Shown: one piece after another, positions 1 through 5,615 of the stretch
How positions within the stretch are numbered: the stretch's first letter is position 1
Layout of the letters: every line of letters starts with the position of its first letter
Position numbers and translations under genes: made by a program
Source: a virus
Lineage: Duplodnaviria; Heunggongvirae; Uroviricota; Caudoviricetes
Length of the DNA: 5,615 nt
Strand: one strand, 5' to 3'
Virus record (IMG/VR): IMGVR_UViG_2695420369_000012
The notes under the pieces: generated by a model
The model's input: the letters and a program-made list of their open reading frames with translations, nothing else
Database searches by the model: none
What the model was told of the DNA's origin: nothing

Positions 1-55
1 GTTTGATATTGAAGAAGCATGGGCTGAGCGGCAGTTAAAAAAGGTAACTAGGTAA
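1..55 (+). CDS. 3' end of an upstream gene (...FDIEEAWAERQLKKVTR*), probably the late antiterminator Q; partial, 5' end outside window
   Basis: Open frame 2..52 with TAA stop at 53-55, sitting immediately upstream of a lambda pR'-like promoter and tR' terminator. Position-based call; the 17 residues are too few to identify by sequence. Confidence 0.35.
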   Translation, partial: FDIEEAWAERQLKKVTR

Positions 56-60
56 CAAGG

Positions 61-88
61 TTGATTTTTCCGGAATCTGTGGTAAATT
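61..88 (+). promoter_or_regulatory. pR'-like late promoter (-35 TTGATT, 16-bp spacer, -10 TAAATT) with qut-like downstream sequence
   Basis: TTGATT at 61-66 and TAAATT at 83-88, followed by cgtcATAACGATGGG, which resembles the lambda pR'/qut region (TAAATTtgactcAACGATGGG, from memory). Confidence 0.4.
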
Positions 89-136
89 CGTCATAACGAT
101 GGGCGTTTTATGCCTGACGTTAGAAGAGTTTCTACA

Positions 137-159
137 ACCCGCCGCCGAGCGGGTTTTTT
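137..159 (+). terminator. tR'-like intrinsic terminator
   Basis: Stem ACCCGC / GCGGGT with loop CGCCGA, followed by a T6 run. The same stem-loop recurs at 3595-3618. Confidence 0.6.
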
Positions 160-279
160 ATGACTGAAATCGCGTCAGTACAGTAAACGCGCTGGTGGCG
201 GTGAATACCTGTCTTTCAGCTTGCTGGCTTTTTCGACAAGAGTTATTGGTGTGTCACGTTAACCGGAAAAGGAAAAGAC

Positions 280-477
280 ATGCTAAAACAGCAGGATATG
301 ACAGAAACCGCCAGAGTGGTGTTTAATGAATTAAGCGTTACCGAACCGGCGACAGTCGGGGAGATAGCGCAGAATACTTACCTTTCACGCGAACGCTGCC
401 AGTTAATACTGACCCAGCTGGTTATGGCGGGTCTGGCAGACTATCAGTTCGGTTGTTACAGACGCCTTCCGCAGTGA
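280..477 (+). CDS. small (65 aa) protein with HTH-like segment (ATVGEIAQNTYLSRERCQLIL); hypothetical DNA-binding protein
   Basis: ATG at 280 preceded by a good Shine-Dalgarno (AAAGGAAAAGAC-ATG). The ORF ends in the stem of an intrinsic terminator. It lies directly upstream of the methyltransferase. Confidence 0.55.
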   Translation: MLKQQDMTETARVVFNELSVTEPATVGEIAQNTYLSRERCQLILTQLVMAGLADYQFGCYRRLPQ

Positions 478-490
478 AGGCTTTTTTATT
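464..490 (+). terminator. intrinsic terminator overlapping the stop codon of the 65-aa ORF
   Basis: Stem GCCTTC / GAAGGC with loop CGCAGT, followed by TTTTTTATT. Confidence 0.55.
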
Positions 491-504
491 TGTGGTAAAT
501 GGGC

Positions 505-535
505 GGCTGGTGGGTGTTAGGGGCACCCACCAGCC
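505..535 (+). other. perfect 12-bp-stem hairpin (GGCTGGTGGGTG ttagggg CACCCACCAGCC) containing a Chi octamer GCTGGTGG in the 5' arm
   Basis: Exact inverted repeat read from the sequence; no U-tract follows, so it is not a typical terminator. It lies in the 5' leader of the methyltransferase gene. Confidence 0.5.
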
Positions 536-627
536 ATCTGCTCATGCGTTGGGTTCACAAGCAAACCTCAGGCCCACTGCTTTGCGCAAAAGCAGAATGA
601 GCCTATCAGAGACAGGCTTAATGATCC

Positions 628-1686
628 ATGCTTAATACTGTAAAAATATCCAGTTGTGAGTTAATCAACGCCGACTGCCTGGAATTTATCCGGTCGTTAC
701 CCGAAAATTCTGTTGACCTGATAGTCACGGACCCGCCGTACTTTAAAGTGAAGCCTGAGGGCTGGGATAACCAGTGGAAGGGCGACGATGATTACCTGAA
801 GTGGCTGGACCAGTGTCTGGCGCAGTTCTGGCGGGTGCTGAAACCTGCCGGAAGTCTTTACCTGTTCTGTGGTCATCGCCTGGCATCTGATATCGAAATC
901 ATGATGCGTGAACGCTTCAGTGTGCTGAACCATATTATCTGGGCGAAGCCGTCCGGACGCTGGAACGGATGCAACAAGGAAAGCCTGCGGGCGTATTTCC
1001 CCGCCACAGAGCGCATTCTGTTCGCGGAACATTATCAGGGGCCGTATCGTCCGAAAGATGCCGGGTATGCGGCGAAGGGCAGTGCACTGAAACAGCATGT
1101 GATGGCCCCGCTGATTTCTTACTTTCGTGATGCGCGAGCTGCCCTGGGGATAACGGCAAAACAGATTGCAGATGCCACAGGAAAGAAAAACATGGTGTCG
1201 CACTGGTTCAGTGCCGGTCAGTGGCAGTTGCCGAATGAAAGCGATTATCTGAAATTACAGGCGCTGTTTGCCCGGGTGGCAGAAGAGAAGCATCGGCGTG
1301 GTGAACTGGAAAAGCTCCACCACCAGCTGGTGGATACGTATACCTCACTGAACCGGCAGTATGCGGAGCTGCTGAGTGAATATAAACATCTGCGGCGGTA
1401 TTTTGGCGTGACGGTGCAGGTGCCGTATACCGATGTGTGGACGCATAAACCGGTGCAGTTCTATCCCGGGAAACATCCGTGCGAAAAACCGGCAGAAATG
1501 CTGCAGCAGATAATCAGCGCTAGCAGTCGTCCGGGTGACCTGATTGCAGATTTTTTCATGGGGTTGGGTTCGACAGTGAAAGCGGCACTGGCGCTCGGGC
1601 GTCGTGCAATTGGCGTTGAGCTGGAGACTGAACGTTTTGAGCAGACGGTTCGGGAAGTACAGGATTTAGTCAGCCAGAACGGATGA
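628..1686 (+). CDS. DNA methyltransferase, beta-class (motif IV DPPY near N-terminus, motif I FxGxG near C-terminus); most likely N6-adenine, N4-cytosine not excluded
   Basis: 352-aa ORF with DLIVTDPPYF at about residue 30 and HPCEKPAEMLQQIISASSRPGDLIADFFMGLGSTVKAALALGRRAIGVE at the C-terminus, the same order and layout as CcrM/YhdJ-type enzymes. A central insert of roughly 130 aa has an HTH-like stretch (ITAKQIADATGKK). Weak RBS. Confidence 0.9.
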   Translation: MLNTVKISSCELINADCLEFIRSLPENSVDLIVTDPPYFKVKPEGWDNQWKGDDDYLKWLDQCLAQFWRVLKPAGSLYLFCGHRLASDIEIMMRERFSVLNHIIWAKPSGRWNGCNKESLRAYFPATERILFAEHYQGPYRPKDAGYAAKGSALKQHVMAPLISYFRDARAALGITAKQIADATGKKNMVSHWFSAGQWQLPNESDYLKLQALFARVAEEKHRRGELEKLHHQLVDTYTSLNRQYAELLSEYKHLRRYFGVTVQVPYTDVWTHKPVQFYPGKHPCEKPAEMLQQIISASSRPGDLIADFFMGLGSTVKAALALGRRAIGVELETERFEQTVREVQDLVSQNG

Positions 1687-1726
1687 TATTGAAGAATTAA
1701 TTACGCGTCGTTATTATGCGGCTCCC

Positions 1727-1802
1727 GGCCCTTTAGCTCAGTGGTGAGAGCGAGCGACTCATAATCGCCAGGTCGCTGGTTCAAATCCAGCAAGGGCCAC
1801 CA
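1727..1802 (+). tRNA. ileZ: tRNA-Ile2 (anticodon CAU, lysidine type; ileX/ileZ-like). Could be scored as tRNA-Met by anticodon alone
   Basis: Hand-folded cloverleaf: acceptor GGCCCTT/AAGGGCC, D-arm GCTC..GAGC, anticodon loop CTCATAA, T-arm GCTGG-TTCAAAT-CCAGC, encoded CCA. Near-identical to E. coli ileX as I recall it. Confidence 0.85.
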
Positions 1803-1809
1803 TCACATA

Positions 1810-1886
1810 CCGCCATTAGCTCATCAGGAAAGAGCGCCAGCCTTCGAAGCTGGCTGCGCGGGGTTCAAGTCCCCGATGGCGGTCCA
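1810..1886 (+). tRNA. tRNA-Arg (anticodon UCG)
   Basis: Acceptor CCGCCAT/ATGGCGG, anticodon stem CCAGC/GCTGG with loop CTTCGAA, T-arm CGGGG-TTCAAGT-CCCCG, encoded CCA. Confidence 0.8.
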
Positions 1887-1899
1887 TTATCTGCATCAT

Positions 1900-1976
1900 G
1901 CGTTGTTAGCTCAGCCGGACAGAGCAATTGCCTTCTAAGCAATCGGTCACTGGTTCGAATCCAGTACAACGCGCCA
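1900..1976 (+). tRNA. tRNA-Arg (anticodon UCU)
   Basis: Acceptor GCGTTGT/ACAACGC, anticodon stem ATTGC/GCAAT with loop CTTCTAA, T-arm ACTGG-TTCGAAT-CCAGT, encoded CCA. Resembles argU-type tRNA. Confidence 0.85.
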
Positions 1977-1990
1977 CACTTATTTTCCCT

Positions 1991-2016
1991 GGCTCGCTTT
2001 TGCGGGCCTTTTTTTT
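1991..2016 (+). terminator. intrinsic terminator after the tRNA cluster
   Basis: Stem GGCTCGC / GCGGGCC (one G-U pair) with loop TTTT, followed by a T8 run. Confidence 0.6.
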
Positions 2017-2236
2017 AAATGTCTCACAATTCAGACGGTTGACAGTTGTCTGTTTTGCGGGGAGTTTGTTAAAAGAAACTGGCATGGTGAATCCCCCTGT
2101 GCGGAGGGGCAATCAGCGAGTAGGTATATGGGATAATCGCGGATTCAGGTGCTGGTACTGAATTCACCGGGAGGCACCCGGCATCATGCAATGGCACATA
2201 GCGCCACTCTCCAGCCCTCTCCGGAGGGGCTTTTCT
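2013..2236 (+). repeat. conserved ~225-bp structured element, copy A (candidate small RNA with its own terminator)
   Basis: Matches 4566-4790. The 3' ~170 nt are near-identical (1 substitution, 1 indel); the 5' ~50 nt carry about 6 substitutions. Contains TTGACA at 2039-2044, an extended -10-like TGtTAAAAG at 2068-2076, several internal hairpins, and a terminal GC hairpin + U-tract at 2213-2236. Confidence 0.7.
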
Positions 2237-2463
2237 GTGCCGGATACATCACAGTTTCTGGAACCTTAGGTACTACAGTATCAGTCAGGGTGCTATATTT
2301 TCAGATGTGATGAAAGCCTGTCAGCAGGCAGGGCGTATCGGAAATGACCCAGTAGAGAAAACGTTGACTCAGATACCGGTGCTGAGTTACCGGGAAACCG
2401 GCATCACATGACCGCTATCCTGAGGTGTACTGGCAATAGCGGACACTACCATTTGTTCTTTTT

Positions 2464-3282
2464 TTAAGCAGCCATCTGATGATATTTTTCCCTGAAGGCT
2501 GCCGGGGAGATATTCCCCAGACGAGAGTGACGACGCTGACGATTGTAGAAAATCTCAATGTATTCCCGTATTACTGAGATGGCTTCATCCCGGTTATTAA
2601 AACGATAGTGGCTCAGGCTCTCATTTTTCAGCGTTCCCCAGAAGCTTTCCATCGGAGCGTTGTCGTAACAGTTACCTTTACGCGACATTGATGTTTTCAG
2701 ACCAGACTGCTCCTGTATGACCCGGTAATCGTATGCGCAGTACTGTGAACCTCGATCAGAGTGGTGGATTAGCCCGGCAGGTGGGCGCTGGCTCCTGAGC
2801 GCCATAAACAGGGCTTTACCTGTCAGCTCTTTTGTCATGCGCTCTCCCATGGCGTAGCCGACAATTTCGCACGTATAAACATCTTTGATGCCAGCGAGGT
2901 ACAACCATCCCTCCTGTGTGGCAACATACGTCAGGTCCGCCACCCAGACCTGATTTGGTGCTGTAGGAGCGAACGTCTGGTTCAGCAGATTTGGCGCAAC
3001 TGGCAGATTGTGGTTCGAGTTCGTAGTCGCTCTGAACTTGCGTTTCTGCTTACAGCGTAGCCTTAGCTCCTTACGAAGACGTGCCAGTCGGTCACGACCA
3101 ACGATGATGCCATTCTCTGCCAGCTCCGTCTGGAGCCGCCGGGTTCCATATGTTTCGCGAGTGCGGATATGTGCCACCTTAATCTCCAGTTTTAGCCGCT
3201 CATCACTTTGTTTTCTGTCTGAGGGTTCATGCTGTACCCAGTTGTAATAACCGCTCCTGGATACACCAAATACCTGACACAT
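2464..3282 (-). CDS. IS3-family transposase OrfB (DDE integrase core)
   Basis: 272-aa ORF with hallmark IS3 OrfB segments: VWVADLTYV...GWLYLA, HSDRGSQY, SMSRKGNCYDNAPMESFWGTLK, YNRQRRHSRLGNISP. Confidence 0.9.
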   Translation of the reverse strand: MCQVFGVSRSGYYNWVQHEPSDRKQSDERLKLEIKVAHIRTRETYGTRRLQTELAENGIIVGRDRLARLRKELRLRCKQKRKFRATTNSNHNLPVAPNLLNQTFAPTAPNQVWVADLTYVATQEGWLYLAGIKDVYTCEIVGYAMGERMTKELTGKALFMALRSQRPPAGLIHHSDRGSQYCAYDYRVIQEQSGLKTSMSRKGNCYDNAPMESFWGTLKNESLSHYRFNNRDEAISVIREYIEIFYNRQRRHSRLGNISPAAFREKYHQMAA

Positions 3283-3317
3283 CGCTTCAATGGGAAATTG
3301 TTGTCGCCATTGTTCGA

Positions 3318-3589
3318 TTAACGCGTATTTTTCAGCGACTCCTGTGCAAAATACGCTGTTGCTTTTTTTAATATATCTCGCTCAAGGCGAGCTTCATTTA
3401 ACGCCTTACGCAGTTGCAGAATTTCAGATTCCAGTTCAGCCACCGTGCGGGAACCAGGAGTACCGAGCCCTTTTCTGGCGGCGGTAACCCATTGTCCTAA
3501 AGTGCCTTCAGGAAGAGATAATCGGGAAGCGCCTTCACTGATCGAAAGTTGATTTTCAATTTCTTTATTTCGGTTCCATACCCACGCGC
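3318..3589 (-). pseudogene. IS3-family OrfA, 5'-truncated (C-terminal ~90 codons remain)
   Basis: Minus-strand frame reads ...EIENQLSISEGASRLSLPEGTLGQWV...ELESEILQLRKALNEARLERDILKKATAYFAQESLKNTR*, with stop at 3318-3320. The N-terminal start is missing because the IS is cut at 3589. Confidence 0.7.
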
Positions 3590-3594
3590 CTACA

Positions 3595-3618
3595 ACCCGC
3601 CGCCGAGCGGGTTTTTTA
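3595..3618 (+). terminator. second copy of the tR'-like terminator, fused directly to the truncated IS end
   Basis: Same hairpin as 137-159 (ctacaACCCGCcgccgaGCGGGTttttttat), but with no pR' or Q upstream. Confidence 0.5.
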
Positions 3619-3656
3619 TTGCGGAATTAATTACGGACCGTTATTATTCTGCTCCC

Positions 3657-3732
3657 GGCCCTTTAGCTCAGTGGTGAGAGCGAGCGACTCATAATCGCCA
3701 GGTCGCTGGTTCAAATCCAGCAAGGGCCACCA
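3657..3732 (+). tRNA. ileZ: tRNA-Ile2 (CAU), second copy
   Basis: 76/76 identical to 1727-1802. Confidence 0.85.
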
Positions 3733-3739
3733 TCACAAA

Positions 3740-3819
3740 CCGCCATTAGCTTATCAGGAAGAGCAGACGACACGATAACAGGGTTGTTGGTGCGGGGGCG
3801 GGTCCCCGATGGCGGTCCA
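3740..3819 (+). pseudogene. degenerate tRNA-Arg-like gene: acceptor stem and D-arm kept, anticodon arm and T-loop replaced
   Basis: Same acceptor stem (CCGCCAT/ATGGCGG) and D-arm as the tRNA at 1810-1886, but the interior reads AGACGACACGATAACAGGGTTGTTGGTG and the T-loop is GCGGGT rather than TTCAAGT. I could not fold a canonical anticodon stem. Confidence 0.5.
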
Positions 3820-3832
3820 TTATCGGTATTCA

Positions 3833-3909
3833 GCGTTGTTAGCTCAGCCGGACAGAGCAATTGCCTTCTAAGCAATCGGTCACTGGTTCGAATCCAGTAC
3901 AGCGCGCCA
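3833..3909 (+). tRNA. tRNA-Arg (UCU), second copy
   Basis: Identical to 1900-1976 except one acceptor-stem position (A to G), which leaves a G-U pair. Confidence 0.85.
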
Positions 3910-4019
3910 TATTCATTCTTCCAGATTCCTTCCGGCAGAGCCTTATACTGAAATATACCTGGCTCAGGATATTGTTGAAAATATTTTATGTTTGTCAAAA
4001 ATAAAAGTTCTGTTAAGTA

Positions 4020-4373
4020 TTGATTGAGTGTTTGTTATACGGTCTAATGGTTTTTTCAGCATTAAATATTTATCATTCATATGGTGTGGGTAGAGTGAAT
4101 ATTGATGAGGCGTCGGGGTGTTTCATCCTTAGGCAGCGTATTGATATAGTCAATGCAGCACGAGCAAAGGCCTTCAGCCGTTTGACAGTTTTGTTCTGTA
4201 CTCCTGATCGTCTTTCGGGAAGAGACGTTATTATTCTGAATAGTGATGCTATACAGAGGGTTTGCGATGAGTTCATGGTTGCTAATTCAGAATTATTTGC
4301 TCTTGTTCAGGAGTACAACAGAATAGCCAGGACCTGTGGTATGGATGAACTTCGGATTACTCATCTGGGGTAG
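4020..4373 (+). CDS. hypothetical protein (up to 117 aa) in an AT-rich insert; start uncertain (TTG 4020, ATG 4047 or GTG 4095)
   Basis: Open frame in an AT-rich segment that is absent from the first module. No convincing Shine-Dalgarno at any candidate start. No recognisable motif. Confidence 0.4.
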   Translation: MIECLLYGLMVFSALNIYHSYGVGRVNIDEASGCFILRQRIDIVNAARAKAFSRLTVLFCTPDRLSGRDVIILNSDAIQRVCDEFMVANSELFALVQEYNRIARTCGMDELRITHLG

Positions 4374-4565
4374 ATACATATCTGGATTATCACCTGTTAC
4401 GGTAAAAAGTGATTGCTTACTGTTTTTGTGAATGGCATTGCAGCAGCCGGATAATGTCAGTGCTGGCTGACGGTGTGCTGGTGGCGGGTGTGGTGGTTGT
4501 TGCTTTCCCGTTGCTGAAAAAGAAAACGCCAGACTGTTAGCCGGGTATCAGTTAGCGGGAGAAAT

Positions 4566-4790
4566 TTTTAAATACTTCACAATTCAGGCGGTTGACTGTT
4601 GTCTGGTTTGCGGGGAGTTTGTTAAAAGAAACTGGCATGGTGAATCCCCCTGTGCGGAGGGGCAATCAGCGAGTAGGTATATGGGATAATCGCGGATTCA
4701 GGTGCTGGTACTGAATTCACCGGGAGGCACCCGGCACCATGCAATGGCACATAGCGCCACTCTCCAGCCCCTCTCCGGAGGGGCTGTTTA
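4566..4790 (+). repeat. conserved ~225-bp structured element, copy B
   Basis: Matches 2013-2236. Terminal hairpin CCCCTC tccg GAGGGG followed by ctgTTTaTaTT. Confidence 0.7.
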
Positions 4791-4820
4791 TATTGATTTT
4801 GTCAGATGTGAGTAAACTCC

Positions 4821-5156
4821 TTATGGACTTTGTTGTTTTAGTCCATAAGGACATATTTGCAGAGTGCAACGGTTATTAAAGCATTCATTCAATACGTTAT
4901 CTGTATTTGTAGGGCATTCCTGGCTATTTTTGATTGAATTCCAGAATGTTTTATTGAATGGTACTACGTTGTAAATGGTTACAGGTAGCACTTTGTTATT
5001 GAGCATGATGCCTGTGTGAGTCAGTGTAAATATACTTTCAGGAGGTAAGAAAGCATCCGATTGATACCAGATTATTAATTTTATTTTACTCCATATGACT
5101 GAAAAAGATATTCCGCATGATGGCTGGATAACTGTATCAATCACAATCCACTTCAT
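4821..5156 (-). CDS. iraM: IraM-like anti-adaptor protein (YcgW/ElbA family, RssB inhibitor that stabilises RpoS); 111 aa
   Basis: Strong Shine-Dalgarno (AAGGAAactaa-ATG). The N-terminus [19 protein letters not shown] and the C-terminal ICPYGLK with conserved cysteines (SQECP...C...C...ICPYG) match my recollection of E. coli K-12 IraM, at roughly 60% identity overall. AT-rich context. Confidence 0.65.
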
Positions 5157-5196
5157 TTAGTTTCCTTGTTTATGCCTTGCTGGTGATGTTCTGAAA

Positions 5197-5223
5197 AGTA
5201 TAAATGATATTTTTGAATGTAAA
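5197..5223 (-). promoter_or_regulatory. candidate sigma70 promoter for the IraM-like gene (-35 TTTACA, -10 TATACT, 15-bp spacer)
   Basis: Read on the minus strand: TTTACA is the reverse complement of 5218-5223 and TATACT of 5197-5202, about 40 nt upstream of the ATG. The spacer is short. Confidence 0.25.
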
Positions 5224-5416
5224 CCATAGAGCAGAATTATTTTTCTGATGTTGTTTATTGTTTATTTAAATGCAGGGTGGTTTATATCTCGTCTTGTAGT
5301 TTATCCATGCATATCTGCTTGATAATCAGGTTTTTATTTAAGGTATGGTTTTGTGTTTTTTCTGTATTACATGTCAGGTATTTTAAAGAATTATTTTTCA
5401 GATGGTGGAAAGAACC

Positions 5417-5543
5417 ATGGCATTTAAACACTATGATGTTGTCAGGGCGGCGCCGCCGTCAGATCTTGCGGAAAAGCTGACACATAAACTGAAAGAGGGC
5501 TGGCAGCCGTTTGGTAGTCCGGTGGCCATAACCCCTTATACCC
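5417..5543 (+). pseudogene. DUF1737-like small phage protein, 3'-truncated by IS insertion
   Basis: ATG at 5417 with RBS GGTGGAAAG. MAFKHYDVVRAAPPSDLAEKLTHKLKEGWQPFGSPVAI resembles the small proteins that precede holin genes in lambdoid phages. The frame runs into the IS end at 5544 and picks up IS-derived residues. Confidence 0.4.
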
Positions 5544-5615
5544 TGAGGTGTACTGGCAATAGCGGACACTACCATTTGTTCTTTTTTTAAGCAGCCATCT
5601 GATGATATTTTTCCC
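5544..5615 (-). mobile_element. second copy of the same IS3-family element; only its terminal 72 bp fall in the window
   Basis: 5544-5615 matches 2421-2492 (TGAGGTGTACTGGCAATAGCGGACACTACCATTTGTTC...). Confidence 0.75.

Follow-up and report, generated by a model that had tools for sequence, protein, structure and literature searches.

A truncated IS600 and 30 nt of nadB at the join of two Shigella sonnei cryptic-prophage cassettes

Introduction

How did two similar late regions of lambdoid prophages come to stand one behind the other, with an insertion sequence (IS) between them, in one short piece of viral DNA? The question is raised by the IMG/VR virus record IMGVR_UViG_2695420369_000012 (Caudoviricetes), whose stretch of 5,615 nt, called the window below, holds a module A on its left side and a module B on its right. 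The original prediction, made from the letters alone, described two non-identical modules that are joined by an IS lacking its OrfA end and bounded by a second copy of the same IS, and ascribed this layout to IS-mediated recombination or deletion between two related prophages. Here we report that the window is a chimeric, derived late-region arrangement in a Shigella sonnei-type genome, in which the cassettes of two cryptic prophages have been joined. To judge by the sequence, the join draws on three templates: the IS600 of prophage A, the gene nadB and prophage B. We take it for a scar left by a single illegitimate repair event, or else for a chimeric artefact, and not for a new kind of genetic element.

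Results

The two modules match two separate loci of S. sonnei

Comparison of the window with S. sonnei chromosomes revealed that positions 1-2421 are 100% identical to strain 53G (HE616528) and that positions 1-3559 are 99.9% identical to CP104423 and others, in which IS600 occupies the same site in the same orientation. This locus, referred to as locus A, is a cryptic lambdoid prophage adjoining ompW. Positions 3590-5615 are 100% identical to a second prophage remnant of S. sonnei, locus B, including the junction at which IS600 interrupts a DUF1737 gene; an example lies at ~1.33 Mb in Ss046 (CP000038), and the DUF1737/IS600 junction is the same in Ss046 and others. At locus B, RusA, a 284-aa Q gene and a pR' leader are found upstream of the tR' terminator. 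The tR' of module B is 100% identical to a reference copy of this locus (L020) from position 8189 of the latter onward, where the normal pR' leader lies upstream, and a normal leader was present in 24/24 of the B-type tR' loci fetched.

Loci A and B are 661-780 kb apart and in the same orientation, as computed from the coordinates of three complete chromosomes. Given that the halves of the window match separate S. sonnei loci, the claim that two different prophages were the sources is borne out. The same holds for the claim of two non-identical modules that are no tandem duplication: identity between the segments that they share is 87-96%, against 99.9-100% between each module and a separate S. 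sonnei locus, and we rejected tandem duplication on this ground. That the complete references keep the modules at different loci, this far apart, tells against the joined layout on which the original prediction was built.

A 30-nt piece of nadB lies between the truncated IS600 and module B

The insertion sequence in the window is IS600, a member of the IS3 family, on the minus strand. Copy 1, between the modules, keeps 1139 of 1264 bp and is 99.8-100% identical in nucleotides to S. sonnei copies over these 1139 bp. It has the OrfA/OrfB frameshift arrangement and matches the Pfam families rve (90.6 bits) and HTH_Tnp_1 (43.4 bits), with the OrfA start absent. The missing final 125 bp comprise the left inverted repeat (IRL), the promoter and the first 20 OrfA codons, so that of the two inverted repeats of a complete element (TGAGGT...ACCTCA) copy 1 has the right one (IRR) at 2421 and no IRL. 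Lacking IRL, the OrfA start and the OrfAB fusion, the truncated IS600 is dead and cannot transpose. The loss of the OrfA end had been correctly read from the sequence, as homology to IS600 ends at 3559, and so had the second copy of the same IS in the DUF1737 gene, since 5544-5615 are identical to 2421-2492. These 72 nt are all of copy 2 that falls inside the window; its IRL and far flank lie outside.

Copy 1 was further said to abut the tR' hairpin of module B exactly, and this did not hold. Positions 3560-3589 read TTTCTTTATTTCGGTTCCATACCCACGCGC and are foreign to both IS600 and the prophage. Their match to nadB covers 30/30 positions (E = 2e-6), and they are thus, like the insert of a repair junction, identical to sequence elsewhere in the genome; in 5420 of 5426 E. 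coli genomes the nadB sequence occurs once. With this filler between 3559 and 3590, IS600 does not abut the hairpin and the join would involve three templates. The filler was absent from the 37 other loci fetched, and no E. coli genome has it beside tR'. We considered two other origins of the 30 nt and rejected both. A native variant of the pR' leader of prophage B is contradicted by E. coli homology that starts exactly at 3590 and by the other 24 loci, which differ; a divergent IS600 or a related IS is contradicted by the 30/30 match to nadB and by the absence of the 30 nt from the other loci fetched. Our literature search found no usable work on nadB structure in S. sonnei.

The two ends of the filler differ. 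Where nadB meets prophage B, the parental sequences are C-A-ACAACCCG-T-CGC and C-T-ACAACCCG-C-CGC, which share 12/14 nt in register, a score equalled by only 0.13% of random partners. The IS600/nadB junction has no in-register microhomology; an offset 7-nt stretch, AACCGTT, is shared there, and 2.2% of random partners do equally well. On the far side of module B, the copied segment stops precisely where IS600 already interrupts the DUF1737 gene in locus B.

IS600 at the parental loci

In most strains the IS600 of locus A is the full 1264 bp with a duplication of TCC, and it was full-length in 7/7 of the fetched loci that carry it. Its left flank ends in ...TATCC and its right flank starts with TCC (L004/L005), reading TCC-TTCCAGGCCC... 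(also given as TCC-TTCCAGGCCCATCCGC), followed by DUF1737-SASA and holin genes. The site is empty in 53G (L008), where it reads ...CGCTATCCTTCCAGG. The IS600 in the DUF1737 gene of locus B (L020 10143-11406) has no target duplication (CCC vs CTA), indicating that this copy already took part in a rearrangement; the flank beyond it is CTAATCAGCTTAGCC.... Target duplications, proposed as a check on the original prediction, were therefore found at the A-site copy of the reference loci and not at the DUF1737 copy. The strain comparison, another such check, went against the prediction: in the references the IS of locus A is an intact simple insertion, and in 53G its site is empty.

Locus A has a third STnc100-like copy, diverged (~70% identity), that separates the IS600 insertion site from the DUF1737-SASA gene; in 53G it lies at 11863-12095 of L008, downstream of the equivalent of window position 2420, with a weak match to window 2281-2469. 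The IS600 at locus A thus lies between two small RNA (sRNA)-like elements and not within a protein gene.

Locus B borders, via an IS600 rearrangement, on further prophage DNA, which reaches the yecN-cmoA-cmoB region. Right of its IS600 the prophage genes run the other way (Dam, a resolvase and a 203-aa ORF; ORF, open reading frame). From this layout locus B itself appears to be the product of an older IS600-mediated rearrangement. In LR213449.1 (L011 1-5385) the usual right-hand neighbour of the B-locus IS600 (L020 11394-16161) is inverted and found left of an A-locus IS600. This order indicates a large inversion between the IS600 copies of the two prophages and shows that the IS600 copies of the two loci recombine in nature.

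Some features of the IS600 copies were seen on the side. The DNA just outside IRR is similar at both copies in the window, TATCC (2416-2420) vs TACCC (5539-5543), and BLAST matches to other IS600 copies run 8-15 nt into the flanks; similar flanks may mean a target preference of IS600. The A-site IS600 varies among S. sonnei strains at the positions that correspond to window 2705 (G>A) and 3134 (A>T), where copy 1 of the window has the consensus of most other copies. Gene conversion among the IS600 copies would fit this variation. Copy-specific SNPs were uninformative for tracing the origin of copy 1, the window copy being the S. sonnei consensus.

IS600-primed break repair as a proposed explanation of the join

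The explanation that we favour, with about even confidence, is IS600-primed break repair in S. sonnei, with template switching, that duplicated a cassette of prophage B. A double-strand break would arise in the IS600 of prophage A near its position 1139, and the IRL-side end would invade the identical IS600 copy in the DUF1737 gene of prophage B. Repair synthesis would leave that IS and proceed through ~2 kb of prophage B (DUF1737', iraM, STnc100, ORF117 and the tRNAs) to tR'. At the microhomology C.ACAACCCG.CGC the nascent end would then change its template to nadB, of which it would copy 30 nt before being end-joined, without homology, to the second end of the broken IS600. The genome would in this way gain ~3.1 kb between IS600 sequences in direct orientation, and loci A, B and nadB would be spared in all other respects. 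Priming of synthesis in IS600 would place the right edge of the copied segment at the pre-existing DUF1737/IS600 junction; the same course of repair would leave the second IS600 in the orientation of the first, microhomology at one junction and none at the other, and both halves undiverged from their parents. As there is no divergence from the parental loci, the event would be recent. After repair of this kind one would expect a complete second IS600 with the right flank of locus A (TCC-TTCCAGGCCC...) behind it, and an intact locus B and an intact nadB elsewhere in the genome.

Several points weigh against this explanation. Template switches over distances of hundreds of kb, as it requires, are unusual in bacteria, and the IS600/nadB junction has no strict microhomology. 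The junction was absent from 24 other B-type tR' loci and from 7 A-site IS600 loci, and its exact strings were not found in GTDB species representatives, IMG/VR or JGI metagenomes. At the protein level, the 42-aa ORF that spans the junction has no protein on record, and only standard loci came up for the truncated OrfA (41 aa), the two DUF1737::IS600 ORFs (62 and 57 aa), the methylase and ORF117.

Alternative explanations

Because the junction is found in no other sequence, we keep the reading that the window is an artefact, that is, a chimeric library or cloning molecule or an error of assembly consensus or gap filling, with the modules really at separate loci. We regard it as possible but rather unlikely. 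The junction is unique in all collections scanned, all other sampled S. sonnei chromosomes have the modules apart, a full A-site IS600 and a normal B-site pR' leader, and both halves match their parental loci at 100%, all of which speaks for an artefact. A plain join of A to B moreover implies an implausible deletion of ~0.67 Mb; the interval between the loci spans the terminus region, and from its size and this map position we take such a deletion to be inviable. The structure of the junction fits an artefact less well. Repeat-driven misassembly joins molecules inside shared sequence, whereas here the break in IS600 leads to a single-copy third locus, and the shared stretches at the junctions, 7-14 nt, are too short for k-mer or overlap joins. 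Nor is the microhomology between nadB and prophage B, rare as it is among random partners, expected from blunt co-ligation, and no adapter-like sequence was found in the window.

A real but stepwise history, in which IS600 inversions or translocations brought loci A and B together with part of nadB, after which two local deletions left the 30 nt, seems improbable to us. It would take at least three independent events with end points within 30 nt of each other, no intermediate was seen among the sampled genomes, and nadB is far from the ompW and yecN-cmoA regions in E. coli. Such a history does agree with the IS600-mediated rearrangements by which S. sonnei chromosomes differ at these loci (L011 vs L004/L020), with the lack of a target duplication at the DUF1737 IS600, which has already been rearranged, and with nadB being a known inactivation target in Shigella (PMC7373316, PMC5723341). 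We give very little credence to the events put forward originally, an adjacent deletion made by the transposase or a simple crossover between the IS600 copies of the two prophages. The two copies do have the same orientation, and IS600 crossovers between these loci are seen in other strains. However, an adjacent deletion retains the IS terminus, and here 125 bp including IRL are gone, indicating that the junction was not made in this way; a crossover gives a full-length hybrid IS, and here a truncated IS is followed by foreign nadB DNA, which argues against a plain IS600 x IS600 crossover. A crossover between direct repeats would also delete 661-780 kb. IS-mediated recombination or deletion in the usual senses is therefore not what the junction records.

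If IS600-primed repair did take place, the window would be a natural bacterial case of multi-template repair, similar to microhomology-mediated break-induced replication (MMBIR) or synthesis-dependent strand annealing (SDSA), that duplicated an accessory prophage cassette of tRNAs, STnc100 and iraM. The hundreds of IS copies of Shigella would then also seed ectopic break repair, beyond insertion and recombination, and prophage cargo such as tRNAs, an sRNA and an RpoS anti-adapter gene could be copied elsewhere by a rarely documented route that leaves a templated filler behind. If instead the window is an artefact, it would be a useful warning: a chimera within a repeat that mimics recombination and is betrayed only by the 30-nt nadB filler.

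Gene content of the window

The features of the window are listed in the table. The content given earlier for module A (tR', small ORF, methyltransferase, three tRNAs and a repeated element) agrees with the sequence scans. For module B, tR', ORF117, the element, the iraM-like gene and DUF1737 were confirmed, two of the three tRNAs are intact and one is decayed, and the DUF3927 ORF at 4409-4540 had been omitted. Taken as a whole the earlier anatomy was mostly right, its faults being this tRNA count, the IS placed directly against the hairpin and the missed nadB filler.

Table. Features of the window (positions in the 5,615-nt stretch)
Feature	Position	Strand	Basis or remark
Q antiterminator gene of prophage A, 3' end (last 17 codons)	2..55	+	reads FDIEEAWAERQLKKVTR*
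Putative late promoter pR' (TTGATT, 16-nt spacer, TAAATT)	61..88	+	inferred, as it lies between Q and tR'
tR' intrinsic terminator, module A	136..162	+	hairpin 136-155, 7-bp GC-rich stem, then T-run
65-aa ORF, weak winged-helix (TrmB-like) similarity	280..477	+	E = 0.0026, under Pfam cut-off
N6/N4 DNA methyltransferase	628..1686	+	Pfam PF01555, 144 bits
Three intact tRNAs: CAT, Arg-TCG, Arg-TCT	1727-1802, 1810-1886, 1900-1976	+	tRNA scan
STnc100 sRNA, copy A, own terminator 2213-2231	2053..2242	+	Rfam RF02076, 123.6 bits
TCC triplet duplicated by IS600 insertion in reference genomes	2418..2420		flank comparison
IS600 copy 1, truncated; IRR end and OrfB intact	2421..3559	-	alignment to two complete IS600 copies
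nadB 30-nt internal fragment	3560..3589	-	window + strand antisense to nadB, coding nt 542-571
tR' terminator of prophage B; own pR' and leader absent	3590..3620	+	stem 3594-3613
tRNA(CAT), decayed Arg(TCG), tRNA-Arg(TCT)	3657-3732, ~3740-3825, 3833-3909	+	tRNA scan
ORF117	4020..4373	+	equivalent place in E. coli prophages
DUF3927 small protein	4409..4540	+	Pfam PF13064, 95.6 bits
STnc100 sRNA, copy B	4606..4795	+	Rfam RF02076, 132.4 bits
IraM-family anti-adapter gene	4821..5156	-	NCBIfam NF007393, 162 bits vs cut-off 121
DUF1737-SASA esterase gene, first 42 codons, interrupted by IS600	5417..5543	+	Pfam PF08410, 57.6 bits
IRR end of IS600 copy 2, cut by window end	5544..5615	-	72 nt identical to 2421-2492

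In module A, the 3' end of Q is continuous with a 273-aa gene of the Antiterm family (PF03589) in a reference locus (L004 8607-9428). The putative pR' did not appear in the output of the promoter scan because only 8/12 consensus positions matched. The 65-aa ORF is annotated as a hypothetical protein in reference locus L001, and the exact methyltransferase protein was found in S. sonnei chromosomes by exact-protein look-up. The CAT tRNA is labelled tRNA-Ile in the RefSeq annotation.

The element repeated in both modules is STnc100. Both copies score over the Rfam gathering threshold of 47 and span model positions 1-206, that is, the full model, and they are 94% alike. STnc100 has been described as a frequent marker of Stx-phage-derived prophage regions (preprint 10.64898/2026.05.13.724894).

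In module B, the Arg(TCG) pseudo-tRNA keeps the acceptor, D and T-arm ends, its centre having been replaced by unrelated sequence; a two-tRNA state is also annotated in an E. coli prophage (L001). ORF117 has no family match in Pfam and NCBIfam profile searches. The exact ORF117 protein occurs in CP050202.1 (L012), the sole record over 1 Mb that carries it; at 7.62 Mb this record is unusually large for an Escherichia chromosome, and type III secretion system (T3SS) translocator and invasin/intimin-like genes lie close to the prophage there. The gene at 4821-5156, named 'anti-adapter protein IraM' in RefSeq, belongs by its sequence to the IraM anti-adapter family, with a putative action on RssB. 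The DUF1737-SASA gene is intact in reference loci L004 and L016, where it encodes 617-658 aa.

Expression and the state of the prophages

Both reference prophages are remnants full of IS1, IS21 and IS600, and the prophages are defective, given that the reference loci are riddled with IS and lack most lysis and morphogenesis genes. A defective prophage had been predicted, and with lysis and structural genes missing or broken in the references this part stands. The cause named for it, antisense IS copies that would separate Q/pR' from the lysis genes, is weakly founded, since in lambda Q-modified RNA polymerase reads through terminators.

Module B is without pR', and its tRNAs, STnc100 and iraM, which have their own putative signals, need not be silent. 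A promoter-like site (TTGAAG-17-TATTAT) lies upstream of the module A tRNAs at 1689-1717. The corresponding promoter-like site of module B (3619-3647) has a weaker -35 hexamer, TTGCGG vs TTGAAG, and owing to this hexamer tRNA expression in module B may differ from that in module A. Stx phages have a mapped tRNA promoter beyond tR' (PMC7547250).

Comparison with known systems

If real, the junction would be one more case of a familiar type of event, an illegitimate IS-associated prophage rearrangement, with an unusual and informative nadB filler. It resembles MMBIR, fork stalling and template switching (FoSTeS) and the alternative end-joining of E. coli in its short exact insert from a distant locus, with microhomology at one junction and, in the proposed course, homology-primed entry on the other side; unlike in those systems, there is one observed junction, read from sequence alone, and the donors are hundreds of kb apart. 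Copy 1 is like IS600 of the IS3 family in identity and OrfA/OrfB layout, as is the A site in its 3-bp duplication in the references, but unlike the complete element it has neither IRL nor the OrfA start.

The ompW prophage of S. sonnei (53G HE616528, CP104423) is like window 1-3559, including the IS600 site, but continues with a complete IS600 and then DUF1737-SASA esterase and holin genes, not with nadB and prophage B. The locus B remnant of Ss046 is like window 3590-5615 at 100%, but there RusA, the 284-aa Q gene and the pR' leader precede tR'. The components of both cassettes are thus already known, being ordinary, previously sequenced parts of S. sonnei cryptic prophages.

The StxS precursor of the Sakai Stx phages is 258 nt long (PMC7547250), versus a pR'-tR' leader of ~66 nt here. 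As only the terminator hairpin is shared, we rejected membership of this leader in StxS and regard it as an analogue. From this hairpin onward the region is common to Stx2a phages, whose matches begin at 136 and reach 92-93% identity to the window over the methylase, the tRNAs and part of the sRNA; these phages carry stx2AB in a stretch missing from the window, and no stx ORF is in the ORF list of the window. The order of the Stx/lambdoid late accessory (moron) cassette, namely Q, pR', tR', methylase, ileZ-argN-argO tRNAs, stx, STnc100-type sRNA, nanS-p-like DUF1737 esterase and holin, is, stx apart, the same here, as seen from synteny with L001, L004, L016 and Stx2a phages. A prophage of the E. 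coli ST131 type has a single cassette that unites the left part of module A and the right part of module B. The likeness to the Stx2a and ST131-type prophages indicates that the cassettes are ordinary Stx-like lambdoid late cargo, here without toxin genes.

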